Assembly (NCBI GenBank): GCA_026026165.1
Contig: JAPEUD010000013.1
Coordinates: 434,001-498,000, forward strand
Source of the DNA: Sarea resinae
Lineage: Eukaryota
Direction: 5' to 3'
Length of the DNA: 64,000 nt
Shown: positions 5,118 through 26,160 of the stretch, piece by piece
Position numbering within the stretch: position 1 is the stretch's first letter
Layout of the letters: each line of letters starts with the position of its first letter
Notes under the pieces: model-generated
What the model saw: the letters and a program-made list of their open reading frames with translations, nothing else
Database searches by the model: none
What the model was told of the DNA's origin: nothing
Program-made: the position numbers and the translations under genes

Positions 5118-6606
5118 ATTAGAAGTAGTCTACTAACTCTTTATCTACTAGATTATTCTTAAGACCTAGTTGTAAAGCTATAGCTCTAGTATAGTTCTAG
5201 TATAGTGTTCTAACTAGAGAGTCTCTTTATATAAGTCTCTTCTAAGTATAAAGAATTTGCAATGCTACCTTATTAGTTGCTTACTTTTTACTTATTATTA
5301 AGTTAATAAAATGTTTAGGCATTAGGTTAAAACAAGTACAGCCTTTTACTACTAGTCTATTAGCTAGCTTAATGTCTGTATCTTCTTCTAGTTTCTTATA
5401 GCTAAGCTAAGAGATAGGTAATATAGGTAGTAAATCTCTAGCTTATCTAAATTCTACTTTATCTATAGTAGTCTTCTTAGTAACTAGCTCTTTAAATAGC
5501 TCTTTATTATTTTTTATCTATAAACTATAGTTAGATTAGTTATCTATAGGATTATCTTATACTAGAGCCTCTTTTATAGTGTTCTCTTTCTTAGTATAAT
5601 ACTTTAGGATATTATATAGTCTAGTCTATACTAAGTCTGCTAAACATAGAACTCTATTAACATTAATTATACCTCTAACCTTAATAAGATCTTCTGTTGT
5701 AAATTAAAATAGCTTTAGTGTTATTCTCTTTTAAAGTTGCTTTACTACCTTAGCTAGTTGCTTCTAATCTCTTAAGGTTTGTTTAATAACTTTCTTAGAA
5801 AGGCCTTATTTACTTATCTTTAGAAGTCTCTTTATAGCTTTACTATTTGCTAGTTCTATTACTTTAGCAAATCTATACTAGGCTGTAATTGCTTTTATTT
5901 AATCTATATAATTTCGCAATATCTTAGCATGCAATATATAGACAGCCTAATTATATCTCTATTTGTTTTCTATTTTCTTATATCCTTTAGCAATACACTT
6001 ATTCTTATCTTAATATTCTTTAGCTAGCGCCTATATCTATAGAGATATAGCAGATAGATAATTATAAACATATATAGTAAGGATAGAGTCTCTAGCTAAT
6101 TTAGTCTTATTCTACTTATAAAGTTATAAATATTAGTTATAGTATTTAGATATTTTATTTGTAAAGGACTTATAAAAGGTAACCTTTATAGCAGTATTAG
6201 TAATCTCTCTAATATGCTAGTGTATTGTAGTAATATTATAGAACCTCTAACTCTAGATTATTAGGAACACTAACTGTTATATAACTCTAGTAGTGTTTAT
6301 TATATTATTTATTGTATCTTTTAGCCTAGCTAGCTCTTTTTCTTACTTAGGTATTTCTTAAGCAAGTAATAATAACAACTAAGTATTAATCTACTCCTAT
6401 ATATAGTTAGGTGATTCCTTAGCTAGTTTAGTCTAGCTATATACTTTAGAAGCTTGTCTTAGTCCTTTACCTTTAACTTCTTTATTAATAATAGAGAGGT
6501 TAAACTATATAGTAGAGGTAATAAAGAGGTCTTAGCTATTGCTTTTAGATAAGATTAATAGTAGCGCTAGAGTTCTTTCTTATATAGAGAGTTACTAGCT
6601 AGCTAT
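5118..6606 (-). pseudogene. Mutated long accessory ORF (~496 codons, 3' truncated) downstream of Gypsy pol, function unknown
   Basis: One frame reads as protein-like from a probable ATG>ATA at 6606 to the junction at 5118. All stops seen are TAA/TAG. Contains EKELARLKD, CTCF and de-RIP LCWNHTRA..QLGL segments. Confidence 0.7.
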
Positions 6607-9451
6607 TTTTAGCGATCTTTTATCTTCTAGACTATCTAGAAGATTAAAGAGAATAAACTATCTTAGGTTTAATAAATAATGTCTAAGTGTACTAATAAAT
6701 TTCTTCTAGCAATACTAGGAGATTTTTCGCTAGGAATTCTAAGAGATTATTATCTTATCTAATAAGTAAATAGCTGTATTCTAATTAGATAGAAGATAGC
6801 TATAATAAGGCTTTAGTTATTATCTAATAAAGTAAGAGATAATAAGTGCTAATAATAAGCAAGCTAATAGAATAAACAGAATAAGCAAACTAATAAGGTA
6901 AGAGTATAAATAAATGTTTAGTTACAAATCTAGATAAAGTAGCAGCAGTAAGCAGTTATAGATATAGAGAATATACAAATATTTAGGAAAGATAGAGGAT
7001 CTTACTAAGAGATATTCTCTTATAGTCTTTGCTTAGCAGTTATATAACTAGATTTCTACTAATAATTATTAGATATTAGTATTAAAAAAGTGTTATCTTG
7101 CTTTTCTTTATAGTGAATTTTAGCGTGTTATTAAGTTAAAGTAGTAGTAGTAGTATTAGTAATATGCTTAAGTAAGGTTCTTTATTACCTATATTACTTC
7201 TTTATTTACCCTTACTTTTAGGTGTGTTTTACACTAAAAAGTAAGGTAAAAGTGAGATAAGTTTAAGATAAGGTTAAGTAAGTAGTAAAAACAGTCTTTA
7301 TAACGCTAACTAAGGTAAATAGTAGTAGTAAAGCGAATATATAATGCTTATACAAGTTAAGAATACCTGCTATATAATTTTACTAACTTATAGTATTATT
7401 AAATTTAGATAGAGACTATATACTCTATAGTGTTACTCTTTAGGTCTAACTAAGAGATTAGGCTAGTAGAGTCTATTTTACCTTAATATAAGCTAAAGAA
7501 GTAAAGTAATATAATGTGTAATAAATTAGAAATATTATTGCAGATTATTAGGTATACTATGTTATATAATATAAGCTGCGCCTCTTATACTTCTAGCAAG
7601 GTAGACTATAGTTAAAAAGATCTAGCTAGATAAGATTATATATATATACACCTCTCTTTAGTTTCTTTTAGAACTTTTAGCTAGGCTAGAAAGTTTTATG
7701 CTATATAATTAGCTAAGGTAGAATAACAACAGCAAATAATCTTCTATAAAGCACTAAGGCCTATAAGGCCTTATATTCTTCCTAAGTTACTTAATTATTA
7801 TTATTATTAAGGTCTTTAGACTAAATATTAATAGTATTATCTGTTGACTTATCTTTAATCAGATAATTAAGTATAGAGGTAAGTAATTATACGTTTATAG
7901 CAGACTTAGGTAGAGAAGGTTAGTATATAAATTTCTTTAGATAATTTCTAAGTGCAGTGCTATTTAACTTAGCGCTGTTAAGTTTAGTAAGTTAGTAAGT
8001 TCCTTAGATAAGGTTAGTCTATATAATATAATAGAGATCTATCTACCTATAGCAGAGTTTGCTTTAAAGCAAATAGTCTATAGCAAGCTTAGTGTTATAA
8101 AGTAATACTATATTATTAACGTTAAATTTATCTAGGCAGAGATTATAAACTTTATTAAATGCTTCTTTACCTTATTTATATATATAGTGTAGATATAGTT
8201 AGGTCTCTTATAGGTCTTTATTACAGCGTTACATTTGCTAAGCCTATAATACTAGCAGTTCTATAGTAGTTTAGACTAAGTTTTAGTCTAATACATGCTA
8301 GGTAAGAAGGTCTAATTTAATAAGTAAGACTATGTTATATCTATATAGCACTTAATAAGGTGTCTAGCTAGTAGAGACTTAAACTGTAGTGCAGTTAGCC
8401 TATAGGACTATATATAAGTTTTAGACCTAATTTCCTATACCTCTATCTGTTATCTTAGCTAGCGCGTTAATAATAGAGGTATAACCTCTTTCTACTAGAC
8501 TATTTGCTTGTAAGTAGTATACTAAGACTATAACATAATTAATTCTATACTTCTCTATAAGAATATATATAGACTACTTATTCTATAGTCCTCTATTAGT
8601 AACTAGCTTCTAAAAGCATTTGTAGCAGCAAATAATATCTTTATAAAGGAATTTAGTAATAGTAGTAGAGGTAGCGTCTCTTATAGCGTGTGCTTCTACC
8701 TAGCTAGAAAAGTTATCCTAGGTAATAATAATGTTCTTCTTATTCTAGCAAGCTAGTATATATATTATGTTAAGGCTAACCTTCTCTTAGTAGGTAAAAG
8801 ACTAGGTTAGGTATAAGGCCTTCTCTTTATATTTAGAGGCTCTCTTCTAACACTCTTAGCAGCTTTTAATATATATTACTACTTCTAGATATAGATTGCT
8901 CTACTAGTATTTATTTGTGATACGCTAATAGGTGCTCTCTTTACCTTAGTATTCTCTTTAATTATAAGCTTTCTCTAGGATATAAGCTTTATTAGCGTCT
9001 TAGTTAATAACTCTTTAAAGTAGTATATTCTTAAAAGCACGCTTAAATAAATGTTAGTCCTAAACTAAGAATTTTAGAGCGTGATTTTTAAACTTATAGA
9101 ACTCTTTAGCGCTTATTTCTGCTAGCTAGACTAGAGAAAGTAGCTATTATACAATCTTCTATAATTTATCTAAGTATCTATTCTTAAGAAGTAATAGAGT
9201 TTCTATCTCTACACTATTACTATTTATAAATATAGGAAAGACTTAAACAAGGTATAACTCTAAGTCTATTACATTGTTAATATCTGTCTTATTTTCTATA
9301 TTAGCAATATCTTCTATAGTAGCTAGCTAATAAGATAATCTATTAGCAGCACTATACTTTTAACTAGGAATATATTAAACAATAAAGTTAAAAAGGTAGA
9401 TCTATACAAGCTATTAAATAATAAGAGTACTAGAAAGGTTAGCTATAAGTA
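5118..9451 (-). mobile_element. Ty3/Gypsy relic, copy 2 (end of RNase H, full integrase, 3' region with extra ORF)
   Basis: 8382-9451 is the reverse complement of 4048-5117 with mainly transition differences. It continues into the integrase C-terminus (de-RIP GNRLKKF ~7930-7950) and ends ...FAVVI near 7700. Assigning 5118-7690 to the same element is inferred from co-orientation and the absence of a visible boundary. Confidence 0.85.
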
Positions 9452-9479
9452 CTTAGGTGCTTAAGAGGTATATTCTAAC

Positions 9480-10900
9480 ACTAGTTTAAGACTAGCTTAG
9501 TATAGTCTTAAGGGTTCTATTACTATAGTATAGTATTAACACTGTCTTAATACAGTTTTATATTAGTTATAATACAGTCTTAAACTAAATTTTAGTGTTA
9601 AGACTATATAAAATTCTAATACTATCTTAACACAGGTTTATATTAGTTATAATACAGTGTTAAACTTATTCTAGCAGTTTAAGACTGTCTTTATACTGTC
9701 TTAAACTTAGGGTTAGTATTAAACGTACGTTTAAATTTAATACTATCTTAATATAGGTTTGTGTTAGTTATAATATAGTCTTAAACCTAGGCTCTAGTGT
9801 TAAGACTATATAGGATTCTATTACTATAATAAGACTAGTTTATAGTAGTTATAACACAGTCTTAAATTTAGCTGTAGTATACACTTATCTCTATATAGGT
9901 TTAAGTAGAGAACGACTCTATATCTAGCTGTATTAATATAGTCTTAAATTTAGCCTTAGTATACACTTATCTCTATATAGGTTTAAGTAGAGAATAACTC
10001 TATATCTAGCTGTATTAATATAGTCTTAAATTCAGCCTTAGTATGCACTTATCTCTATATAGGTTTAAGTAAAAAACAACTCTATATCTAGCTGTATTAA
10101 TATAGGCTTAAGTTTAGCAGTAGTATGCACTTATCTCTATATAGGTTTAAGTAGAGAACGACTCTATATTTAACTGTATTATCTGTATCTAACTGTATTA
10201 ACTTGATCTTAAATTTAGCTATAGTTAATAAGACGTTTGATAAAAGAAGTGCGAAAACTTATTTTACATAAAAAATTGTTAGATGTCTTAGAGTAAAGTC
10301 TGCCTTTAAGTACTCTAAAGTTTAGGTTAGTTTAAGTTAAGAACAACCTAGTCTTAAATCCTATCCTAGGTATCTAGCTGTATTAATATAGTCTTAAACT
10401 TAGCTATAGTGTGTATCTATCTTTAGGTTAGTTTAATTAAAGCATAACTCTATATCTAATTGCATTAATATAGTCTTAAATTCTGTCCTTAGTATCTAAC
10501 TATATTAATATAGTCTTAAATTTAGCTGTAGTATGTATCTGTCTCTAGGTTAGTTTAAGTTAGTAACAACCTAGTCTTAAATCCTATTCTTAGGTATCTA
10601 ACTGTATTAATACAGTCTTAAATTTAGCCTTTAGTATGTATTTATCTCTAGTAAGTTTAACATAGTATGTATTTGTCTCTAGCAGGTTTGACTTAGAGAT
10701 AGCTCTATATCTAACAGTATTAACACAGTCTCTAGCTAGGGCGTTAGTTCTAAAACTAATTGTAATTATTATACTATGTTAAGATAGGTTTGTATAGGTA
10801 ATAATACAGTCTTAAACCTATATATACAGTATTAAACCTAGCTCTTTATATCCTATTATCTTAGTACAAGCTCTTATTAGGAAAACAACAGTCTTAGACT
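9480..10900. repeat. Left subterminal repeat array, including an 82-bp tandem repeat (about 4 copies, ~9861-10190)
   Basis: Recurrent motif AATAYAGTCTTAAA. Unit starts at 9861, 9943, 10025 and 10107 give an 82-bp period. Confidence 0.9.
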
Positions 10901-11879
10901 AGGTTATAGCATTAGACGCAGTAGATATTAATTGCTAGTACGCACCTCTCTAGTAGTATTAATATAAAGTTAAGTAGGTGATTATATAGTTAGAAAACAA
11001 GTAATTTTTTCCTGTTTAGACACTCTACTTAGATGTTAAACACGCTATAGAAATTAAAACTAATACTAAAACCTATCTCTAACTAGCACTTAAACTAGGC
11101 TTAAAAACAGACTAAAACCTTTATAAACCACGCAATTACACTACTTAAATCCTAGACACATTTTATATAGCAAAACCTATCTGCTACCTTAGACCTAAAC
11201 CTATGTCTAGGCTACTAACTAGATATATTAGGCAGGTAATTAGATACTAGAACTGCTTGTTTAGTTGTGCAGATCTATATATACTTAAATTATCGCTTAT
11301 TATAGGCCTCTCTTTCCTTTTAGTTAGAGTAATTAGTGTAGTAATAGGATATTACTAGTTAAAATTGTTTAGTAGCGTTCCTCTAGCTTGTTATACTCTA
11401 AGAACAGTCGCTAGATATAGACCTATTGTATTAGACTCTATTGCGTTAGATTCTTTATAGCTAACACGTTATAGAGAGACAAAATAGACGCACTAAATTA
11501 GTGCTAAAGCAGAACACCTAGATAGTCCTAATAACTCCTTATATAGTTAATAAGATAGCTATAACAACTACTTAATAACCTACTACTAAGGCATAATTAG
11601 TAGAATAGTATAAAGCAAAGAGATTAGAAAGTGACTGCTCTTTTAGAAAGGAAGTAGTAAGAGAGCTCTTAATTAATTAATTTAACTAAAGAATAAAGAA
11701 CTGCTCTGCTTTTAAAAGCTGCCTAAAAAGCTAAACATAACTAAACTAATAAACTTTTCTAAATTAATCCTAACCCCTTAACATAATACTATCCTCTTTA
11801 AACTATATGCCCTAAGAACAATATATATAACTTGCTAACTAATCCTAACTAAACTATTCTAACCTATAACAACGTTAGA

Positions 11880-13690
11880 ATTATAGAGCTTTCTCTTCTA
11901 GATTAGACCTGCTAGGTAACTTAAATAGCTAGCCTAATCTTCTTCTTAATTAAGACAATAAGTGTTGTTTGCTAAGAGTCTCTAGTTTAGCCTTATCTTC
12001 TATAGCTAGAGTTATAAGAGGGCTTATATTGCATTAATATTAATAGCTAGCTAGTAAAGAGGCTATAGGATTGATTTAATATAATGCTATTAATCCTTTA
12101 TCTTTATCTTCTAGTTGTCCTATTAACTCTTTAGCCTATAACATATTAGACGCTATATATATATATATATAAGATAACAATTAATATTTACTAATAAATC
12201 TTCTGCCTTAGCAGCCTCTAATGTGATACTAGATTGACTATTATATCTATTATTAGATAATAGGCATAATATAGCCTCTACTTAGCGCCTTACTACCCTT
12301 ATGTAATAGTCTACTAGGTAGTCTATTACTCTCTAAGGATTAGCTACACATGCTATTATTATCTTACCTAAACCTTTAATAACCTTATAGTGTTCTTAGA
12401 ATGCTATTTTAATCCTATCTAGATACTTTTACATGTGTAGTGCTAGCCTAGCCTTATATACTTTAAAGTCTTATAGAAAGTTATTGTATTAACTCTATAC
12501 ATTATCTATTAGCCTGCATATAATTTTGTCTATAGCTACACTAACTAGTTAGTTAGCTATTTAAATAAAGTTATCTGCAACTACTACACTCTTTTTATTA
12601 ACAATCTTCTAATTTATAAGGAATCTTCTAGCTTCTTAGTATAGAAACATATCTAATCCTACTTTCCTATAGTCCTTTAGCTCACTCTTTTTAGAGAGCA
12701 AGCAATCTTATATTATTGTTCTAATTTTTCTCTAGTTTATCTTTAGTGCCTAGGGCTTTATTATTAGCAATATAGGACACCTATTAGGCCTCTAATTATT
12801 GTATAGCCTATGTTCTAGTACAACATTGCTGTTGTTATTCTACTTGCTCTTACAACTTAAGAAATTTAATTCTAGTCTCTAAGGTGTTTTGTTGTAAATA
12901 CCTAGGAGGTAGTAGTAAGTAAGTAACACTTAAACTATATACAGCTGTATATTTGCTCCTTATATATATATAGTAGAGGAAGATCTTAGATTGTTATATC
13001 TAGCCTATGTTTAGATAGGATTATTAAAAGTCTCTTAAGTTAGTATATATAGTTAGAATCTTACCTTAAGTGCTATCTGTTATAAGTATATATTATATAG
13101 AGATATATCCTTATAGTGTAGGCTAAGAGAAGGTATACTCTGCTCGCGTTATTAGCTGTGTAGAAGCATATTCTAATACTATTAGCTGCTAGAAGAGATG
13201 TTTTAGAACTACTAGCTGCTAAGAGATATGTTTAGATATAGTTAGCTGCTAGTAGATATGTTCTAGAACTGCTAGCTGCTAAAAGACATGTTCTGCTTGT
13301 GTTAGCTACTAGCAGATATGTTCTAATACAGTTAGCTATAGCAAGGTATGTTTTGCTTATATTAGCTGCTAGCAGACATATTCTAATACAGTTAGCTATA
13401 GCAAGGTATGTTCTGCTTATATTAGCTACTGCGTTAAGGTATGTCTTAGAACTACTAGCTGCTAAGAGATATGTTTTACTTGTGTTAGCTGCTAGCAGAT
13501 ATGTTCTAATACAGCTAGCTATAGCAAGGTATGTTCTACTTATGTTAGCTACTATATTAAGGCATTTCCTAAGACCTTTTATACTAATACAGTTAATATA
13601 AGTTAGTTAATCTAGAGATCACTCTTTACCTAAGGTTAGAGTGCTGCTTATATTAAGTCTAGACGTGTTATAATTATATAACTACCTAGC
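11880..13690 (-). pseudogene. Mutated spliced cargo/accessory gene B of the large DNA element (repeat-rich N-terminus plus unknown domain)
   Basis: Continuous protein-like frame ~12900-12190 (IYNKTP*RLELNF..VGLDMFLY*EARRFL..AAKAEDLL) with intron-like breaks (GTAAG near 13064, GTAAAT near 12190). An upstream exon carries the 30-bp repeats. Confidence 0.6.
13141..13565 (-). repeat. 30-bp coding-type tandem repeat, about 14 units (de-RIP consensus N-M-[SP]-x-x-S-Q-x-x-Q)
   Basis: Units start at 13141, 13171, 13201 ... 13411 (33 bp), 13444, 13474, 13504, 13534. The only length variant is +3 bp. On the minus strand, ATG/ATA and CAG/TAG alternate at equivalent positions. Confidence 0.9.
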
Positions 13691-14169
13691 AAATTAGGAA
13701 ATTAGTAAGATAGCTATATAGGTAGTGTAGAAGGTGTAATAAGGTGTAAGAAGTGCAATAAGGCGTGAGAAGTGTAATAGTTGTAATAGTGTTTTTATAT
13801 AAAAAAGTAAGGGTAGTATAGATACATATAGATTAAAAACTTTGCTATTACTAGTTGTGCCTATTAAGTGTTCTCTTTGCTAGTAAATTAGTTATTAAAT
13901 GCTATAAGCTAGATCACTTAAGTCTGTTACTAGGTAATAAATAAGGTATAAGATTAAGTGATTAAGCTAAGGTAAACAATATAGAGTTAGCCTCTATATA
14001 TAGTAAAACACAGATAGTAAAGTGAGTAAGAGGTAGTAGAATACAAATAGCAAAGCTAGTAAAGAGTAGTGAATATATGTAAAGCAGATACACTTAAACT
14101 AATATATACTCTAATCCTTCTATAAGCATCGCCTTTTCCTAGATTAAACTAACTAACACTAGTAGAACG

Positions 14170-15900
14170 TGTAAAAAATACAGACTCTAATTTGTAATAT
14201 AGAGTTGTTTCTTATATAGTAGTTAGCTATAGCTCTCTTAGCCTATTAGAAGATTATTATCTATGTCTTTATTCTCTATACATTCCTTCTTAAGAACTTT
14301 GTAATTAGAGTCAATGTTTAGATTAATACTAGGCTGTTTTTTAAGAGATTATAGTTTTTTCTTTATGAAATTAGTAAGCGTTAAGTTACTAAAGTTAGTG
14401 TAGTCCTTTATAGCTTTATATATATCTAAGAGATACTCCTTAGTGTACTTCTATAGCGATATATCTATAGAGTTGTTTTCTAAGTCTGTAGTTAATTTAG
14501 TATAAGTAACTAGCTAAAGAAATATGTCTGCTAATAGATACAGATTAGATTCTCTATAACTACACACTATACTAAGTAAAGACTTATAGCAGAACTACTT
14601 CTAAGTAGACAAGGTATAGGCGTCCTAATCTATAAACTTATTAGCGAATTAAAACAGTTCTAGCAACTAGTAGATCTAGAACTAGAGATTTAACTTATTC
14701 TTTAGACGTTTAAAGTCTTATATCTTATTTAAGTAACCTCCTAATGCTTTATCCTTTTATATATATATCTTAGCCTAATCTTATATAAATTAGTATATAA
14801 GTGTAAAAGAACAATAAGCTTGTGCTACACTTACACCTATATGTACTAGAAGTCGCTATTTCTATATCTTAATATTATTAAGCACCTTATGTTTAGCTGC
14901 TTAATATACTTTATAGCCTAGGTCTATACCTTTAAACTCTAATTAAATAGCTTTGTTAAAATTCTAGTTATATAGGTCTTAAAGGAAAACTAGCTAGGTC
15001 TAATACTCTATATAAAATAAGACCTTATATTTGTTACAACTAGTAACCTCTTAGAGGCTATTCTTTTAAGGATCTATAGGTGACTTCTTATTTAAATCTA
15101 GATCTAAGGTTCTATTCTTATTATATAACAGATTGTAAGCTGTCTTATCTAGCGTCTAGTTTAATCGACTTAGTGTATCCTTTCTCTCTAGTCCTAATCC
15201 CTTTCTTTTTACACCTAAAGCAGCCTTATTATTTAAGAAAGACTTCTTAATTTGTTAGACAGATATGTTTTCTTTCTTTATACTAATATCACTTAGACTA
15301 TAAGGTTCTAGACTTATTACAAGCTAGTAGCATATTGTTAGCATATATATATAGTAAGCAGCAAACAATCTTACCTTAGAGAGGTTCTCTTATTAGCGTT
15401 TACAACTAACTTAAGAAAGAGTGTCTCTGCTATTTAAATAGATCTAATAGCTAGGTCCTTACTATTAGTGTAATTAGCATATAGTAAAGCATTATAGAAG
15501 CATGTTTTAAGGCACTTATATTAGGTGTCTGTAATAGTGTATATATAGAGGACTTTGCAATTAAAGATTGTTAGCTGTTAATTAATTTTACTTAACTAGA
15601 TTTTAATTAATTACTACTTCCTTAGCTGCTGTTCCTATAGCTAGATTTTAATTAACTATTGTTTCCTTAGCTGCTGTTCTTATAGCTAGCAATTAATGTT
15701 CTATAACTAGTTTTAGATTTGCTCTTACTAGTATTCTTACTAGGTGTTATATCTACACTTAATAGAAATAAGTCTAGTATAGTATTATCTAGGCTGCTGT
15801 TTAGAAAATCTAGCTCTATCTAAACTTAGGTTAAGCAAATTGCTAGCTATATTAAGCGAATTGCTAGACACCTAAGCTACTATAGTAGGATAGAATTATA
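14170..15900 (-). pseudogene. Mutated spliced accessory gene A of the large DNA element, function unknown
   Basis: Clear intron ~15374-15324 (GTAAG..GCTAAC..TAG), then a frame reading ..YKVY*AAKHKVLNNIKI*K*RLL.., a second intron near 14834-14775, and a further ~190 protein-like codons. The 5' end is uncertain. Confidence 0.55.
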
Positions 15901-16299
15901 TAGGTAATATAAGTAATAAGCGACGTTAGAAAATAGTATTAGATGCAAAGTTAGGTAGTACCTAGTAATCCTTTTAGTGTAGTCCTTATAGATATTAGGT
16001 TATATGTTTTATAATACTAGTAGGTACCTATATACTCTAGATTATATAGTAGTAAGAGTATCTACCTATATAGGTACCTAATAGCTTTAGGTATCTAACT
16101 CTACTAGTTTAGCATTTAATATTACTATATTAAATAGGTTAGCCTTACTAGCTAGAGAGATAAAGTAGTATATAGTAGAACTAAGGTATATTACAAAGTA
16201 GGTATCTTAGCCTATACTACTCTAAACGCAATATATAGCTAGGTATTAAGAGAAACACTTGTTTAGGTTTATAATTACTTTAATATAGAAACATACTAA

Positions 16300-17400
16300 T
16301 CTTAATATACTATCTACTAGATAATCTGCAGATCTAGTGTATATAGGCTTACCTCTATATTAATTAAGCTACTAGAGTATAAATCTTATAAACTAGCACT
16401 TATATTGTTAGACGCTGTCACTTACTATATATGTATAAGTTTTAGTCCTTTAGCAGGCTACAGTCTCTAGTCACATTATTAAAGACTTAACTGCTGTCTT
16501 TCTTAATACTTAGTGTGTTATTGCTATAGATAAAAACTGCTAAGAAAGTGCTTAAATCTATATTAAATGTAAGAGAGATAATAGAAGGCAGCTACTTAGA
16601 GAAATTAGTAGAAACATTTCTATTACCTCTAGTAGTAAAGGCCTATATATATATATAAAGTCTAACGCTATTAATTAGAATATATAGACGCCTTAGCTAG
16701 ATATAGAACTTGTAGTAAAGAGGCTAGCTTAGGCTTAATACTATTAAATATAGGAATGTAAGGACTAGAGTTATACTATCTAGAGTGATAAGTTTTACAT
16801 TACTTATACAGTTATTAAAGGCCGCCTACAAATAATTAGTAGGATACCTAAGGAGAAATAGAAGCTATTTATAGTTAGATCTTACTCGCCTTATATAGAT
16901 ATCTAATTTACAGCTTAGGTAGCGTTTAACTAATAAGAGAAATTAGACTGTGTTATTCTACTACCTATATATAGATAGAAAGGTATAGACTCTAATGTTA
17001 TTATAGATAACGCGTTTAAAGTTAAACTTCTTTAAATATATATCTATAGGTAGAGTTATTTTATTTAGGATAATAGCCTAGCTAATATATCTATAGCAGC
17101 GTTAGAATAGTTTAAGATTTATAAAATTAAGATAGTAGCACTCTTACTATATAGTCCTAACCTTAATCCTATATTAGATCTCTTAGTACTACTATAAGAG
17201 ATTATCTACTGTGATTTTCTAGAGCTATTTAATATAGGACAAGTTAATATTAATATAGCAAAGGCAGATGTATTAGAACAAGCTATATAATAGTCTTTCT
17301 AAAAGATACTATAAGTATATCTTAAAACTGTAGTAGATAGGTACTATAGCTAAATCTAAGCTATACTTAATACTAATAGTTAGTATACTAAGTATTACTA
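16300..17400 (+). mobile_element. Tc1/mariner-like transposase relic
   Basis: RLA*A..D*SYTI*SDK (de-RIP RLAWA..DW..IWSDE, ~16720-16790), FI*DN (QDN, ~17060-17075), YSPNLNP (SPDLNP, ~17150-17170), and a C-terminal I*AILNTNS*YTKY (~17355-17395). No convincing TIRs were found. Confidence 0.85.
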
Positions 17401-17689
17401 AGACTTTAGTCTGCAGAATAGATTTAACTATATCTTCCTCTATATTGTTATTATATATATAATAAAGAGATTAGAAGTATACTAATATGCTTATACTTAA
17501 TAAAGTATTAGAGAAGGTGCCTCTAGAGTATATAGAGCTGCTTATACAAAGTATAGTCTGCTAAGTTTAAGTGATAATTAGTGTAAGCAGTAGATACATA
17601 AGATATTAGACCTTCTTAGCTAGTAATATACTAAATTATAAAGCATTATAATACCTAGTTAAGTTCCTACAAATTAATTAATCCTATAG

Positions 17690-18600
17690 AGTTAATTATA
17701 GTTGCTTAGTTATAAGCTAGGTAGCTAGATACTGTTGTTATATTACTATACATTATATTAAAGACTTATACACCTAGCATTCTTAGCGCAGCCCTATATA
17801 GTGTGCTATAGTAGAATATATATAAAGAGACTTATATAAACAGCCTTTAGAGTCTACTATAAGGACTAAATTTTATAGAGGGTTTAAGGTAATAGCCTAA
17901 GGCTTCTTAGGCTATACTATAATACATAGACTAATAAGGATATAATAGCTAGTAGGCCTAGAGAGAGACGTAGGCTAAAGCTATATAGGTTTAGCTTCTC
18001 TAAGCTAGGATAAATTATTAAGGCTAGTAGTACCTAAAATATATACCTAGGTAGCAACCTAAAGCTAGCTAAGTCTGCTCTATATCTGCTTTAAAATTAA
18101 CTCTTTTATTAGAGTAGAGGTGCTTACCTAGCGAACTATCTACACTAGCTTACCTAGCAGCCACTCTACTCTACTTATTCTATAGCCTACGCTAAATAGA
18201 TATAGGATACATTAGTATCTATACTTAGACTATAGATTATATAGTTCTAGATTAATATCTAGCCTACTTATATAGATAACTAATGTAATTACTCTAAACT
18301 TAAAGCGAAACCTAGCAGACTCTAGCTATAGTGTGTAGCAAACTATTAGCTAAGTAAGAGGTCTAAATACTAAGGCAAAATCCTAGCATCCTTACCTAGC
18401 GCGCTATCTACACTAGCTTACCTAGCAGCTACTCTATCCTACTAATTCTATAACCTGCGCTAAACAGACTAGAGCTTGTGTTTAAATCTAATTAATAACT
18501 AAGGTAGGTATACTTTTACTTTTTAACCTACTACTTAGCTCTACTTACCTACTCTCTTCTAGTTCTTAAGAGAAAAGTAATAGTAACACTAATAATATAT
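17690..18600 (+). pseudogene. Possible mutated ORF C upstream of the large transposase
   Basis: Protein-like frame (ILSAALYSVL**NIYKETYINSL*SLL*GLNFIEGLR..) with only TAA/TAG stops. It contains a ~78-bp direct repeat at ~18123-18200 and ~18391-18468. Confidence 0.4.
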
Positions 18601-18969
18601 AAAGATCTCTTTAACTAGTGTAAGAGTTCTAATTAGAATACAAACCTTATTTTAACCTATCTAATATATAAGATAAGGCTATATAGTATGTATTTCTAAG
18701 TAGGTATTTATTCTTACTATAGTATATCTAGTAGAAAGGTACTTGTAAATACCTAAGATATCTTTTTACAATACATACCTTAAGGCTACTATAAAGAGAT
18801 ATCTACCTATATCTACAACTAAGAGCGACTTTATTTTACAGACATATAAGAATATATGTTTATCTATTATAAGCTATTATACTATTAGTGTATATCTTAC
18901 CTATCTACTTATAGTAGTTAGGTATTTTCTTATATTATACTCTATACTATGTATGCTAATAGCTAACAG

Positions 18970-21900
18970 GTTACACATAATATTAGCTGCTAATGTAGTA
19001 GAAAAATACTATGCTATATACCTTATAATTAGCAGTATAACTAGATCTTTAGCTTGTCTTAGCTATAGAGTAATAATGTAACACATTAGAATAAGTATAA
19101 TTAAGAGAGAGAAAGGTATCTAGATTAACTTAAAGAAGAGGCACTAGATTAACTTAAAAGAGAGGTATTAGATTCTAATAAGAATAAGAATGCATTAGAT
19201 TATAAGACTCTATTCCTTAATATAATAACTAACACAAAAGACTTAGAGCTAGCAGCTAAGGTAGAGAGAGAAGAAGATAATAATAGTGCTATAGAAATCA
19301 ATAAATCTAAACCTATTCTAATTAACAATTACAACTATAACCTTAAGAGCATAGGCTATAGAGATAAAGAAGATATAATGTAAGAGGATTCTAAAGACTA
19401 GGTAGATACTAATAAAATAGCAGACGTTTATCCTATAGATATAGAGATTATAGCTTATACTATAGAGGCTAATTAAATAGATCTATTTGTTCTTAGATTA
19501 GGCCTTTAAGTAGAGTATATAAGTATCTCTTAATAAGAATATATACAACTCTAACAAGTTATACACTTACTCTCTAATTATATAAGGATAAAGGCGTTAC
19601 CTTAGAAGCTTAACACCTTAAAACGTCTGATTAGAAAACGCCTGCCCTTGTTACAGCTTATAAAGAGAAGAATAAGTGTATAAATTTAGAAGCAGCTATC
19701 TATTCTCTATACCTAGAAGGTAGGCTGTGTAGTAATAAACAATTAGATATAGATCTACTTTTACAACCTATAGGAACTAATTAGGCTTATATTATTATGT
19801 CTAACGTTTAGAGAGCAACTACACTTTAGTATAGCATATTATATAGATAGTCTAATAGAGTTATAGCACTCTAAAGCTTAGGGTTTCTCTATAAGGTTGT
19901 GCTTAGAAGATATAGCCTAAGATATCTAAGGAAATATAATTATACCTAGTAACATTGTTAGGATTAGAGGTAGTTATAGGTTAAAAGAAAGAGTAGTCTT
20001 TATTAGTTAGGATTACTACTCTTCTACTTAAGGGTAGTAGTATAGGTTAATTACAATTATAGTGCAGGCTGTTTTAAAGTATCGCTAACTTATAGCTAAT
20101 GCTATAAGACTAATTAAAGCATGTTGTTTAGATATTAAAGACAATAAGCTATTCCTTATAGAGGATAAGAATTTCAATATAAAACTAAGTTAAATAAACA
20201 GTTAAGTGCTAGATGTCTACTTTAACTGCATAAACTATATACAATCTAATACTAAGGATCTGCTAGTAATATAGAATAGCTAGTATATTTACAGAGTTAT
20301 AAATCTAACTTATTACTCTATATAACTGCTCTAAAAATTCCTTGCTATAAGGGTAGAACTAGAAGTAAATCACTTTAGCTATATATATATTAAGACACTA
20401 GCTTTAAATAACAAAGGTAATAGCTAAGAAGTTATTTCTATACCCTTCTTTCTTTTTATAGACAACTTTAGCGTACACTAAAACATATATTATACTGTTA
20501 AGAGATTCTATTAGATCTCTAGTGCTCTAAACTTTAACAAATAAAGATATATAAGCAATGTGTTTACACTATACTTAGGACTCTATAGAGCTTCTATAGA
20601 AGCAATAATTTTAACTATTAAAACAGGTCTCTATTTACTAGACTATAGTATTATTATAAATATCTCTAGTTATAACAGGCCTAGCCTAGTATACGCCTTT
20701 ACTATAGGCCTTTTAAAGGATATACCTTAGTAAGCAGATAATAGTAGGTTTTTAAGATATAATATAAGAATAGGCTATTAGATATGCTTTTATCCTACTA
20801 AATAGAAAGGCAATCTTAACTTTAATGTTATAGATAAAGGTTATTATTATTTTAAGACAACTAGCTATTATAAGGCTATTAATTTTTAACTTATAGCTAA
20901 GGAATGTTAAGACTACACTAGAGTATATAGTATAAGAGAGGAAAGTCTTCTTATAATATATATCTACTTAGCACTTAACTTAATCTAAGGACAGCCCTAT
21001 AACGTACTACACTTAGAGTAGCAAGAATTAGGCTAGATACTACAAAGCTTATTACTAATAGATATCCTTATTACAAAGGAAAAATCTGTATATACTAACA
21101 CATTCTAAGAGTTTATCTATCCTATTAACTAGCTTAGAATATAGAGTCTCTCTTATTATCTGCTGTCTTAGTCTCTATTAGAAGCTAGTTATACTTCTAT
21201 TCTAACTCTATTAATATTAAGATGCTACTCTAATCTAATATAGTATAAAGAGAATTATATTATAGCATTATATAGGCTTAGATTTAAAGAATTTCCTAAG
21301 AGAGTATATCTAAGTGTTGTATAGGTATTTAGAGTTATAGCTAAGGCTAATACACTAATAGGTTCTAAATGCTATACACTAGTAGATAACCTCTATACCT
21401 AGGTTCTAAGTGTAAGATAATGTTACTAGTAGCTCTTATAAGCAGTATATATAGCAAGTAGATACACTATATATATACTAGATATAAGGTATAAAGCATT
21501 ATAATATATAGCACACTTATACTAATAGAGTGTTATATATATAGATAGAATATTAGATAATAATAATAAAGATCCTTTAAGTAATAACAATTATAAGTTA
21601 GATATAGAGGTTAGACTACTACCTGCTATTATTAATCGCGCCTTATAGAATCTTAGCTCTACAAACAACTTATCTAATAATGCTAGAGATATTAATTAAA
21701 TGCTTTTATAATTAAAGTATAAAAAGCTATAGGTAATCTCTAATATATATTCTAAGTTATATCTGCCTAATGTTGCTAATAAATACACTATAGTTATAAA
21801 TGCTAATGTATTAGCTAGAGAGACTAAGTATAAAGAATATAAAGCTATAGCAGACACAGCTACACTAAGTAATCTTATAGGTTACTTGTTTATAAAAGAT

Positions 21901-22664
21901 ATACTTAGGCAGACCTTATAGTTTAGACTTAGTAGTGCTTAGAATAACAATTACTCTAAGCTTATTAAGTCTCTAATAGCGCTAACACAATAAGCTCCTT
22001 TAATTATAGAAGGCTATCTGCTACTATTTAAAAGGCTAAGATTAGACATTAATATTAACGCACTACTAATTAAGGATTTAAATTAGTATCTTAATAGGTA
22101 TTATAGAAACAAGCAATATACTATTAATAGAGACTAGCACTTAAGCACTTAACTACTTAGATCTAAGCTATCTATTTATACTATAACTAGACTATATATA
22201 TAGTGTTAACTATAATTTACACAATATTATAAATTATAGCTATAGGAGAATATAATAGAGAAAGTATTTAGCTTAGATAAATCTATAAGTATTATAACCT
22301 ATATAACGTGTGATTTATTTAATACATAACCTAAAAAGATATAGGCTTAAGTAGTTGTTAATATTAAAGACTATATTACTACCTAGATAGAGCTATATTA
22401 AATTAGTTAGTTATTTGCATATAAGTTCTAAGTAAAGAGATATATCTTTACTATAGTTAATCCTCTTATAGATATTTCTATTACAGATCTAGTCCTAGGT
22501 CTCTAAATCTATAAGATATAAAATCTATAGCTTATTATTAGCTTGCTAGGACTGTATTATTATTAATACATAGTGCTTTTTAATATAATAAGCTCTATAA
22601 AGCAAAAGATAATAGAGCTAAGAGTTATATACTTAATTACAACTAGATAGTAGGCTTCTTATAA
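18970..22664 (+). pseudogene. Mutated large DDE transposase of CMC/CACTA(EnSpm/Plavaka)-like type, ~1200 codons
   Basis: Single frame from an acceptor GCTAACAG at 18969. De-RIP motifs: LFIDDFGVHRNMYR (20452), NVFTLTLGPHGA (~20557), DMPQQADN..GCR.C (20719), PYDVPHSEWQGLG (~20995), WPRIQSP, and PNxHSxLH..EY..NxNVLAGETKHK (E at 21820). Superfamily assigned from recollection of fungal EnSpm/Plavaka-like proteins, not from a search. Confidence 0.75.
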
Positions 22665-23010
22665 GAGAGTTTATACTAAAAGGTATAAGGTAGTGTCTAT
22701 AACATAAGTTCTAAACCTAGATACATTTAGAAAAGGTTTAAATATAATAGATTAACTTAGGACTTTAATATGTTTTAGATAGGTTTAAACTATTAAACAG
22801 TTATATAGTTCTAAACTTATAATATAGCTTTATAGTTCTAAATCTTAATACATTTTAGATAGGTTTAAACCTCTAAATAGTATTATAAGTTTGTATTAAG
22901 TAGTAGTATTAATAGTTTGATTTTATTGTTAGTACTAGTAGTTACTAGACTAGATTGTAGTATCCTAGCTAGTTTATAGTTCTGTTACTAAGATATATCT
23001 CTATAACTAA

Positions 23011-23273
23011 AAATAGTTCTGTACCTTAATATATCTCTATAACTTAAAAGAGTTCTATACTTTAATATATCTTAATACTCTTAAATAGTTCTATACCTTA
23101 ATACATCTTAATACTCCTAAATAGTTCTATACCTTAATACATCTTAATACTCCTAAATAGTTCTATACCTTAATACATCTTAATACTCCTAAATAGTTCT
23201 ATACCTTAATACATCTTAATACTCTTAAACAGTTCTATACCTTAATATATCTTAATACTTCTAAATAGTTCTG
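23011..23273. repeat. Right subterminal 36-bp tandem repeat, about 7 copies
   Basis: Unit AAATAGTTCTATACCTTAATACATCTTAATACTCCT arranged head to tail (e.g. starts 23083, 23119), with no spacers. Confidence 0.95.
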
Positions 23274-24567
23274 TGACTAGGATATAGTTCTATTACTATA
23301 AGATAGTTTTACCTATTCTAGTACTATACTACAATCTAGATACAGTTTTATATATTAAGACAGTCTTAAAACTAGTTTAGTACAGTGTTAAGATATATAG
23401 CGTTAGCACTAAGGTTTGTTTAAGGGTATAAAGTGCATTATAAGAGTCTAGAATGCTTTTTTTAGAATGAAATTCCTTAAACACAGTGTTATTATAGACC
23501 TTAGCATTATCTAAGTGAAATCTTTTTAGCCTTTTTAGGCTTTAATTTTCCTCTTTAGCAATATATTCTTTAAATTTGCTAAAGGTTTCACTTTAATGTT
23601 TTAGAAGGTGAATATCAAGGTATTTTATAGCTAGGTCTAGGAAGGTAACATAGTATTTGTTACTACTAGGTGTTAGAGGTTTTATAGGACTCTCTATATC
23701 ACTACATACAATTTCAAGGTATTCCTTAGGCTTTTCTACAGGGGTTTTACTAGCATGTCTAGTAAATTTAGCCTCTAAGCAAATAGTGCAGTCTTTAATA
23801 TCTAAGTCTTTAGACTTAACACTAAGCTCTGCATTGTTCTCTAGCCTTTTTAGAGCGCTTTCCTCTATATGTCCTAGCCTTTTATACTATATATCTAGGC
23901 TATTATCCTCTATAGTGCTATTTAGCACTATAGGTATAGCTTTAGTCTAAAAGACACTAAGCTTATTAGTATAGGTATCTTTAGCAGTGACACTACCTCT
24001 ATTATCTAGGATAAAGACATTTTTAGGGCTAAAGTTGACTTTATAGCCCTTATTTATAATTGCCCCTAGGGATAGATCATAGCAGGTTTACACTAAAGTC
24101 AGGGATGTATAGGACGTCTCTAATATTTACCACCTGATTTGTTAGGGTAAATATTAGCTTAATGTCCTCTATGCCTGTTGCTATAGTAGAACTACTATTG
24201 TTACCCTACTTTACAGTAGTGTTATAGGGTCTAAGGTTGTTAAAGAGTTCCTTTCTATAGCAGATATGTGTTGTTGCACCTGAGTTAAGAATCCACTCTG
24301 TAACAGTGCTGTTTGACTTGGATTTTACACAGCTATAGGAAGCTTCAGGTGTAACAGTGCCTTTTTATAGCTTTGCAGCAGTACCTTCTAGGACTGTGCT
24401 TATAACAGTGCATTCTAACACTGATTTAGGACAACTATAGGAGTTTAAGCTTGTAACAATGCGTTTTGACACTGATTTAGAGCAGCTATAGGAATTAGAG
24501 CTTGTAGCTATAAAGCTCTTTTCCTCTTGTAATTCCTCTGCTGTAGAGGGGTTAGCCCTATGCTTTT

Positions 24568-25107
24568 TGTTAGAATGTAGCACAAAGATATAAGTAGAGG
24601 AAGGTGCTAAAGAAGTGTAGTATAGAATGATTGTGTATTTTAAACTTAGAAATTCTAGCTATAGAGGTGTAAGGCAGTCAATATATAGACTTAACTGACT
24701 TACTAGAAACTTCTAGTGATGACTAATTACATGAGTGATTTGTAAGCAATAAGCTGACAATGACATAGGCTTTGTAAGAAAGTCAGGAGATAGTTGTGTA
24801 ACCCTTATGTTATAGAGTTCTATAGATGTCTAAGAGATTCTATAGACTTCTAGACAGTTCTAGAACATTCTAGAAAGTTCTAGAACATTCTAGAAAGTTC
24901 TAAAAGGTTCTAGATGCTTAGTCAGCATATAGTGATGCTTAGTCAGCATAGCTATAGAATCTTCTAGAATGTTCTATAAGATTCTATAGAGTTCTATTAG
25001 CTTCTATAGGTCTGTAGAAGCTTCTAGATATATCTATACTGTTATATAACATTCTATAACAGTCTAGATACTTAAGAGTGACTAGAATTAAGGTTATAAT
25101 TCTAACA
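24568..25107. mobile_element. Solo LTR (540 bp) with 5-bp target site duplication CTTTT
   Basis: Begins TGTTAGAAT and ends ATTCTAACA (9-bp perfect inverted termini). CTTTT at 24563-24567 and 25108-25112. It interrupts the Copia ORF between the Zn knuckle and protease. The first ~50 bp match the LTR at 26607. Confidence 0.93.
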
Positions 25108-25984
25108 CTTTTTAGCATTAGGCTTTTTACTCCTTTTTAGGCTAGGATGCTTTTAAAAGCATGTAGACTTATTATAATTATTTAGTCTACAATAGTTATA
25201 GTACTTTTTACTCTTAGAGGTAAGAGCTACCTCTGTATCCTTACTAGTGTTATGACTATTACTACTAGTGCTAGTGCTCTTAGAGATTTTAAACCTCTTA
25301 GAGTTATCTATTAGCTGTGCAAAGATTTCCTCTAGGTTAATATCCTTATCTTTGCTTTTGTTTATTGTTTGTGTAATAATAGTAACTATATTATTATAGT
25401 TACTAGTAAGGTTGTTTAGAGTCTACACAGCTATAAATTTATCAGGCAGAATTAGTTCTCTAGCCCTTAGCTTATTATTTAGCTGCTTGATTTTTATAAT
25501 GTAGGTAGTCCTCTAGATCCTTGCATTTTTAAGAGTTGTATTAAACAACTCTTTGCAGATTAGGAATTCAGAATTAAATCCCTTAGATTCATAGAGATTT
25601 TACAGACTAGCCCACAATTTTTATGGATTAGTGTGATACCTAGTCTGTAACAGTAGGCTATCTGCTAGGGCAAGCCTAATATAGGCTAGAGCTTTTGCAG
25701 ATTTTGCCTTGTAATAGTCTGAATCAATATCTATGCTATTTTCAAGGTCTTTAGACATGACTTTGAAATAGCCCTTTTCTATAAGCAGGGATTCTATCCT
25801 TATAGACTATAAATCCTAATTAGAGCTGCCTTGCAGCTTAGGGATTTTATATGCAGGATCAGATATAGCTGTAATTACTAATCTCCTACTTAATTTCAGA
25901 GAAAAGAACCACTAGCTATTAAGTGTATTCTACTGCAAGTAGTAGAATCACACTAGTATGACTTTTGTACACTTATAGAACTTA

Positions 25985-26160
25985 TAAGTTCTATAGATGT
26001 GTGAAATAGCTGCACAAAGAGTGTCTTATGCTTTTGCACCACTGTTACAAGTTCTATAGATGCATAAAAGATCAGCACAAAGGCTGTTTTGTGACTTTCA
26101 AACTGTTACAGTTCTATAGGTGCGTAAAATTGCAGCACAAAGGCTGTTTGCAGAACACAA
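25985..26160. repeat. About three degenerate ~60-bp repeats in the Copia 5' leader
   Basis: GTTCTATAG.TG...AAA....GCACAAAG..TGT recurs at ~25988, ~26051 and ~26111. Confidence 0.7.

Follow-up and report, generated by a model that had tools for sequence, protein, structure and literature searches.

We analysed a window of 64,000 nucleotides from the fungus Sarea resinae (contig JAPEUD010000013.1 of assembly GCA_026026165.1, positions 434,001 to 498,000; all coordinates below are those of the window) and found that the interval 9452-23413 is rather likely to be a single dead copy of a large DNA transposon of the cut-and-paste type, belonging to a Plavaka-like lineage of the CACTA/EnSpm-Mirage-Chapaev-Transib (CMCT) clade. 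A sequence-only reading of this DNA had proposed a single class II element that RIP (repeat-induced point mutation) had killed and that carried a transposase of the CACTA/Mirage/Chapaev-related clade, and in this respect it still gives the best account of the interval.

The assignment is carried by a transposase relic on the plus strand in the right part of the interval. We used the plus-strand translation of 19120-22419, with stops written as X, as the query in a full HMMER (phmmer) scan of 1.84 billion representative proteins. This returned 520 proteins at E ≤ 1e-3, 50 of them at E ≤ 1e-30, with a best value of 3.4e-101. The full scan was required, as none of 8000 candidates scored when the RIP-mutated translation was used in a word-indexed protein search. 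When ten of the relatives were compared with the window by tblastn, matches occurred solely at 19420-22047 and in one frame, and BLASTP of the relic against the best relative, P0001, gave an E value of 7e-117 with 254 of 893 columns identical. The 876 codons of this span contain 61 stops (32 TAG, 29 TAA and no others), which face Trp and Gln residues of P0001 (LGLX/LGLW, DIPXX/DMPQQ). The frame probably extends to about 18901-22419, and 1100 codons of the transposase frame contain 79 stops. In the relic the first catalytic Asp reads as Asn and the first zinc Cys as Tyr (G-to-A); the second Asp and the Glu are retained. Because the stops are all TAA or TAG, and because of the Asp-to-Asn and Cys-to-Tyr replacements, we conclude that RIP killed this transposase copy. 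The large plus-strand transposase of about 1200 codons in the sequence-only reading is therefore a genuine relic by phmmer, tblastn and BLASTP; we put its size at roughly 1000 codons. The relatives are named 'hypothetical protein', except P0011 (source label 'Glutathione reductase'). The closest come from lichen fungi, and the nearest of them, P0001-P0003, belong to Teloschistaceae such as Pyrenodesmia and Gyalolechia; the hosts include the lichen-forming Pyrenodesmia, Gyalolechia, Seirophora, Gallowayella, Letharia, Sclerophora and Chaenotheca, and also Coleophoma.

Next, we placed the family by its motifs. In two alignments of the relatives, D386, D471, C490-x2-C493 and H567-S-E569 (P0001 numbering) are invariant or nearly so, and C490 and C493 are invariant in both. 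PMC12730594 gives a C(2)C motif, located in the stretch from the second Asp to the Glu, as the signature of the CMCT clade, and it also lists an H(3-4)H motif in this stretch, target-site duplications of 2-5 bp, and 5'-CA..TG-3' ends for most elements. The H(3-4)H motif is partly kept: H514 is nearly invariant and P0001 reads HGRYH, with the first His replaced in P0007 and P0011. The Plavaka model of Pfam (PF18759, gathering score 26.3 bits) has no match in the relic frames when stops are written as X. Among 14 relatives, 13 are without any Pfam match and one has a Plavaka match at 19.9 bits, and 7 of 30 aligned relatives match PF18759 weakly at E ≤ 1 (best 3.2e-6); one further homolog carries a precomputed PF18759. 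Neither the relic frames nor 34 distinct relatives match Transposase_21, _23 or _24 (E ≤ 0.01-1), the domains to which fungal CACTA-Mirage-Chapaev elements are tied in PMC5751038.

To characterize the fold of the family, we used an AlphaFold2 model of the intact relative P0010 (600 residues; model m8d4ba3d73283), which was built on 56 sequences and is confident (pLDDT 91.0, pTM 0.87). Foldseek placed RAG1 at the top (E 7.5e-5 over ~340 columns) with BAH domains alongside. VIA-align on the Foldseek list gave Z 9.8 for RAG1 (333 aligned, rmsd 5.0) and Z 9.4-9.8 for the BAH domains (128-140 aligned, rmsd 3.3-4.6, model residues 129-310). In a scan of 48,161 representative chains, the first 23 rows were solely BAH domains together with RAG1 (Z 8.7), BbRAGL (8.0) and HzTransib (6.7), and the next row fell to Z 5.3. 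The BAH rows reached Z 9.8 and aligned 101-145 residues (126-145 for 20 of 23), mostly at model residues 133-310. A BAH-like beta-barrel at about 133-310 of P0010 thus matches the BAH domains of ASI1, ORC1, PBRM1, AIPP3, EBS, DNMT1/MET1, Sir3 and DIM2; the Pfam BAH model is not among the matches of the 30 aligned relatives. By alignment offsets, the BAH-like part of the relic lies at ~19825-20380 and the catalytic region at ~20440-21030, and the former persists recognizably (LHFSIAYY... aligned to MHFGMAEY... of a relative). The similarity to an RNase H-fold DDE (Asp-Asp-Glu) enzyme that the sequence-only reading expected of its large frame was found as a RAG1/Transib-type core in the P0010 model, and the alignment of the relic to this family spans 893 columns. 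On this model, the family is predicted to be a RAG1/Transib-fold DDE transposase with a BAH-like domain before the catalytic domain. We place the element as a Plavaka-like member of the CMCT clade and not as CACTA proper, since it has neither Transposase_21 nor CACTA ends. The proposed CMC/CACTA-like identity therefore stands for the related clade and the subterminal repeats, but not for the transposase domain (Transposase_21 unmatched) or the termini, which read CTTAG...CTAAG.

The whole interval lies in RIP-mutated DNA. The GC content is 0.24-0.35 over the first 27 kb of the window (0.24-0.31 at 9-24 kb) compared to 0.44-0.54 beyond 27 kb. RIP is indicated by a TpA/ApT ratio above about 0.89 and a (CpA+TpG)/(ApC+GpT) ratio below about 1.03; both indices of 9452-23414, at 1.75 and 0.45, lie on the RIP side, compared to 0.76 and 1.25 in 27001-64000. 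RIP is uniform across the whole 14 kb, which leakage from the flanks can hardly explain. Just three open reading frames (ORFs) of at least 60 amino acids occur between 8000 and 25000. The sole one within the interval (13299-13601), and low stop counts in two frames, are due to the internal 30/60-bp tandem array. No Rfam family matched 9000-24000 at E ≤ 0.1.

We assessed copy number by depth in the contigs of sequencing run X1, which contains the stretch and from which it probably derives; runs X2 and X3 are almost empty of it. Between 9.7 and 23.3 kb the depth is ~400-510, with the exceptions of two tandem-array bins (719 and 820) and the bin over a short high-copy repeat (Table 1), and it rises to 3270-7053 in the left flank and 31725-146290 in the right flank. 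The interval is single-copy at ≥80% identity in this run. Because the depth is ~400-510 throughout apart from one ~370-bp piece, the interval is not built from the abundant repeats of the genome, save for that piece. The unique X1 contigs stop at 11479 and resume at 11848, and the piece between them has ~45 times the single-copy depth. Its other copies are less mutated, carrying C or G in place of T or A in the window: positions 11641, 11643 and 11787, all T in the window, are C in them, and beyond 11822 the loose end resembles the window with the G-to-A and C-to-T changes undone. No bounding inverted repeat and no other copy in the window were found for it. The piece could be a small nested element or else a repeat that was captured; possibly, it is a small element under the length limit of RIP that was mutated here only through sitting inside a long repeat.

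The two ends of the interval resemble each other as imperfect terminal inverted repeats, as the sequence-only reading had noted. The alignment begins at the first bases, with CTTAGGTGCT against CTTAGTGCT, followed by TATAT..CTAAC/CTTAAC and then by ACTAGTTTAAGACT. The 80-nt ends reach a local score of 40, compared to 22.2 ± 5.2 for ~3000 random pairs from the same RIP block, and 0.47% of those pairs reach 40. This similarity is modest support for one element, strengthened by its start at independently defined boundaries. A start of CC(C/T) before mutation had been suggested for the element, which in fact begins CTTAG. The asymmetric subterminal arrays were confirmed by Tandem Repeats Finder (TRF), with an 82-bp unit in 4.0 copies at 9858-10181 (92% matches) on the left and the 36-bp array on the right. 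The motif GTCTTAAA occurs 21 times in the window where 4.3 ± 2.0 are expected; most of these copies lie in the left subterminal region and one in the right end, and TTTAAGAC is likewise present at both ends. We also observed an X1 contig at single-copy depth (367) in which right subterminal sequence like that at ~23335 is joined to left sequence like that at ~9534, with 37 other letters between. It could represent another locus with a short end derivative, a head-to-tail junction, or an alignment artefact of shared motifs.

The sharp edges against two unrelated retroelements were confirmed from the homology on either side and from the steps in X1 depth. The left edge is set by 8382-9451, which matches 5117-4048 in inverted orientation (90.4% identity) up to exactly 9451 and no further. 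Within this flank, at ~8834-8981, the minus strand carries a weak zinc-binding relic of a Gypsy-type integrase (Integrase_H2C2, E 4e-4 and 1.3e-3, under the Pfam cut-off). At the right edge, a minus-strand relic of Copia-type gag/Pol (Retrotran_gag_2 1.6e-16, Pol_BBD 2.6e-15, gag_pre-integrs 1.4e-5) is cut within its integrase at ~23414. What remains of this Copia element does not appear beyond the left edge of the interval. The two inverted copies of the left retroelement piece (4048-5117 and 8382-9451) lie 3.3 kb apart, and one of them ends at the left boundary of the transposon.

Table 1 Features of the interval and of its flanks, in window coordinates.
Feature	Position	Strand	Remarks
Left flank, multi-copy retroelement piece	8382-9451	-	Not part of the element
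Left end, resembling a terminal inverted repeat, CTTAGGTGCTTAAGAGG...TTTAAGACT	9452-9510	+	Matches, from its first base on, the reverse complement of the sequence that ends at 23413
Left subterminal region	9485-10816	+	15 copies of GTCTTAAA (13 direct, 2 inverted); includes the 82-bp array
Short high-copy repeat inside the interval	11480-11847		Depth bin 11403-11969 = 18069 vs ~400
Internal 30/60-bp tandem array	13171-13554		TRF
Transposase relic	19420-22047	+	Single frame (coordinate = 1 mod 3), no frameshift
Right subterminal 36-bp tandem array	22957-23308	+	7.3-9.2 copies; TRF places the array at 22976-23308
Right terminal inverted-repeat-like end, ...CAGTCTTAAAACTAG...GCACTAAG	23355-23413	-	End alignment; GTCTTAAA at 23363
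Right flank, Copia-type retroelement of very high copy number (5' half)	23414-26000	-	Not part of the element

We then examined the architecture of the relatives in 80 related loci. Two of these have defined ends. The locus L053 is a complete unit of 7.4 kb with 60-nt terminal inverted repeats (95%) at 2560-2619 and 9941-10000, a minus-strand second gene and a plus-strand transposase; no subterminal repeats were found in it. L070:6158-14983 (the same as L071) is a RIP-mutated relative of 8.8 kb with 368-nt terminal inverted repeats (78%) beginning ATCGGCAAATCTCAAAAG. A profile of the second, or partner, gene finds it in 17 of 77 non-duplicate loci. It lies upstream of the transposase in 14 of the 21 loci with >2 kb of upstream sequence, on the opposite strand in 12 of those 14 (for example at L053:3686-4904, L014:582-1829, L033:265-1329 and L002:883-1818, all minus strand), and 5.5-7 kb from the transposase in L002 and L059. 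The partner protein is helical and conserved, with motifs like LDRxIRWN and KNKxL. It has no real Pfam match, including no TET/JBP, SET, methylase, ParB or 2OG-oxygenase domain, and a homolog search returned two near-identical proteins only. Its structural model is poor (pLDDT 56, about 80 in the core), and Foldseek gave no match for it at E ≤ 0.001. The nearest intact relative with flanks, L002, carries an SNF2-like helicase between the partner gene and the transposase (2596-6028, plus strand, in two ORFs; PF00176 5.9e-13, Helicase_C 3.1e-3), and no spanning terminal inverted repeat was found in it. As separate observations, L002 shows a perfect 137-nt inverted duplication at its contig end (10668-10804 and 11191-11327), most likely an assembly artefact, and L055 and L063 represent a single locus that is present in two assemblies (98% identity across 23 kb).

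At the nucleotide level, the window and these loci share little beyond the transposase. Plain blastn of the interval against the 80 loci gave one 52-nt match. After collapsing C>T and G>A differences, noise reached 98.7 bits in the reversed control, and the matches above 100 bits were the transposase part and the Copia piece at 24646-24901 only. Compared in translation, the upstream parts of L070 and L055 scored at most 37.7 bits against the window, with 37.0 bits in the reversed control.

These results bear on whether the interval is one element at all. In an alternative that we consider possible but unlikely, the interval is a mosaic: only its right part, from roughly 16-19 kb to 23413, would be Plavaka-like, with the true left end lost or unrecognizable. 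The left arrays (9452-10816) and the DNA to ~18.9 kb would derive from one or more other low-copy elements, and the similarity of the ends would reflect chance or a shared AT-rich motif. Several observations favor the mosaic or weigh against a single transposon. At 14 kb, the interval has nearly double the length of the two relatives whose ends are defined. Its collinearity with the RIP-mutated L055, L063 and L070 is confined to the transposase part, no homology links 9452-19400 to the 80 related loci, and the partner gene that accompanies 14 of 21 relatives is undetectable in the window. The subterminal regions are very unequal (15 copies of GTCTTAAA on the left and 1 on the right, with different tandem units), and at least one foreign high-copy piece, 11480-11847, lies inside. 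The match between the ends is short and imperfect, with a chance of ~0.5% per random pair for ends that had been picked by eye in the sequence-only reading, and the second base T of the termini cannot derive from A by RIP, in disagreement with 5'-CA..TG-3'. X1 has no second copy at ≥80% in which the ends and the transposase could be seen to occur together. Finally, two different, non-contiguous retroelements flank the interval, and the triplets next to it (GTA and GTT) differ rather than forming a target-site duplication. Since the flanks are two different retroelements, no such duplication is to be expected; it may have been lost by rearrangement, and the unlike flanks probably arose by ectopic recombination between two copies or by a deletion after insertion.

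Against the mosaic stand the ends, which align from base 1 at boundaries that were defined independently, and the presence of both GTCTTAAA and TTTAAGAC at either end. The depth is uniform and single-copy, and no Pfam domain of another transposon or retroelement occurs inside in the frames scanned (stops as X, E ≤ 1; plus frames 9401-22002 and minus frames 10001-23402). The identical method did recover the flanking Copia and Gypsy relics. The uniform RIP over 14 kb also speaks for one element, as does, in the matter of size, the occurrence among the relatives of units with intact termini at 7.4 and 8.8 kb and of distances of 5.5-7 kb between partner gene and transposase in L002 and L059. We therefore favor one dead Plavaka-like transposon over the mosaic.

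The sequence-only reading had further described two spliced minus-strand genes (A and B), a plus-strand ORF (C) and a Tc1-like ORF, and had suggested an undescribed gene-carrying system. We found no Pfam family in the interval frames scanned, including no Tc1/mariner, helicase or SNF2 domain. Domains of the Tc1/mariner DDE_3, DDE_1 and HTH_Tnp_Tc3 type were specifically absent at E ≤ 1, although heavy RIP could mask a weak relic. When 1789 ORFs of ≥70 amino acids from the 80 related loci were compared with the window, 7 of the 105 matches fell outside the transposase and none of those 7 in the interval, and phmmer of the six frames of 8.8-20 kb against related-locus ORFs found the transposase N-terminus only. 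Codon periodicity is weak outside the transposase, in a test of low power that is too weak even within the verified transposase. Stops are few in a minus frame at ~13.6-15.4 kb (14001-14500 has 7 in 167 codons), which also holds the best matches of the partner profile to the window, which are not significant (E 1.4 and 0.93). With RIP-aware profile scoring, the partner profile reached 40.1 in the window element, compared to 45.7 for the reversed sequence, whereas the partner gene of the equally AT-rich control L059 was recovered at 110.5 compared to 52.2. A penalty of 0.5 proved too permissive in this scoring, and at 1.0-3.0 the window was never above its reversed control. Genes A and B, ORF C and the Tc1-like ORF are thus not borne out, and the second, divergent gene is real at the level of the family but cannot be shown in the window copy.

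A third reading, in which the interval is a gene-carrying giant element and at least two of these four relics are real, RIP-hidden genes, draws on the divergent upstream partner gene of the relatives, the L002 helicase, the stop-poor minus frame and the multi-gene giant Plavaka elements of red algae (bioRxiv 10.1101/2025.02.11.637652), but it is improbable in view of the negative Pfam, ORF and partner scans above, the weak periodicity, and an L002 SNF2 protein without a match in the window or among the 76 other loci. On the favored reading, 9452-18900 (~9.5 kb) is element-specific, single-copy DNA whose former content is illegible and in which no coding relic is supported. It may have held a partner gene, cargo, or old nested insertions.

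For the single Plavaka-like transposon, we propose the following course of events. A live transposase of ~1000-1100 residues, built of a RAG1/Transib-type DDE core that includes a C(2)C zinc motif, and of a BAH-like insertion ahead of the catalytic domain, would bind the element ends, presumably through the GTCTTAAA subterminal repeats, and would cut and re-join the element. Through the predicted BAH-like domain, the enzyme may become tethered to marked nucleosomes, which would favor heterochromatic targets, such as the retroelement graveyard in which the copy lies. RIP then destroyed the copy, and its unlike flanks would stem from ectopic recombination between two copies or from a deletion after insertion.

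Compared to known systems, the element shares features with several. Plant CACTA/En-Spm elements encode TnpD with Transposase_21 and TnpA, and have subterminal repeats, CACTA ends and a 3-bp target-site duplication. The window family shares with them the short subterminal repeats in direct and inverted orientation, the two-gene organization at family level and the wider clade, but it has no Transposase_21 match and no CACTA...TAGTG ends, and the partner gene of the relatives is divergent and belongs to no Pfam family. The zinc C(2)C after the second Asp is common to RAG1 and this family. RAG1, ProtoRAG and Transib (4wwx, 6b40, 6pqn) also give the best matches to the catalytic core (Z 8.7, 8.0 and 6.7, 252-341 residues aligned), but the identity is 8-10%, there is no RAG2-like partner, and the BAH-like insertion, the ends and the host differ.

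The closest likeness is to Plavaka (PF18759), which PMC12730594 groups with EnSpm, Transib and RAG1. Common to both are a DDE transposase with C(2)C 19 residues past the second Asp, a RAG1/Transib-like fold, a fungal host and a tendency to extra genes, and weak PF18759 matches occur in 7 of 30 relatives; most relatives, however, are under the Pfam cut-off or unmatched (13 of 14; 23 of 30). The PlavakaA and PlavakaB elements of Agaricomycotina that are described there end in TGT..ACA or CATCA..TGATG and make 2-3-bp duplications, whereas the window element ends in CTTAG..CTAAG and the hosts of its family are Pezizomycotina (lichen fungi, Letharia, Coleophoma). This family also stands apart in that its transposase carries a BAH-like domain and its partner gene lacks TET/JBP and any other Pfam domain. 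In red algae, Plavaka elements of 17.4-19.1 kb with accessory genes PAG1-3 and tandem arrays of inverted repeats are described in bioRxiv 10.1101/2025.02.11.637652, so that a multi-gene giant with tandem arrays is not an undescribed system. The window copy resembles these elements in its large size, in tandem arrays near an end and in the idea of accessory genes. It differs from them in that no accessory gene is shown in the copy itself, in that the partner of its relatives has no detected SET, methylase, ParB or 2OG-oxygenase domain, and in its host kingdom.

In conclusion, the outcome for this window is mostly a correction, with one verified gene relic instead of five and a Plavaka-like element instead of CACTA; the copy is a dead, partly readable member of its lineage. 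Large gene-carrying Plavaka-type elements are already known, and this lineage differs from them in host group, ends, BAH-like domain and partner gene. Tentatively, as a reading that is less likely than not, we suggest an unnamed Plavaka-like lineage of Pezizomycotina, abundant in lichen-forming fungi, in which a RAG1/Transib-type transposase acquired a BAH-type reader that could steer it to marked, heterochromatic nucleosomes, and which kept a conserved, divergent helical partner; the window copy would then represent a giant form that had carried cargo in its additional 9 kb until RIP erased it. Among the titles listed by a full-text literature search, none points to a BAH-bearing transposase, which does not show its absence from print. 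For the family as a whole, the 520 unnamed fungal proteins emerge as RAG1/Transib-fold transposases that Pfam mostly misses, and a conserved partner gene is retained besides the transposase. If the BAH-like domain reads histone marks, it would be a cut-and-paste counterpart of chromodomain targeting by Gypsy integrases, and such targeting, if true, could help to explain the pile-up of these elements in RIP-mutated repeat blocks.

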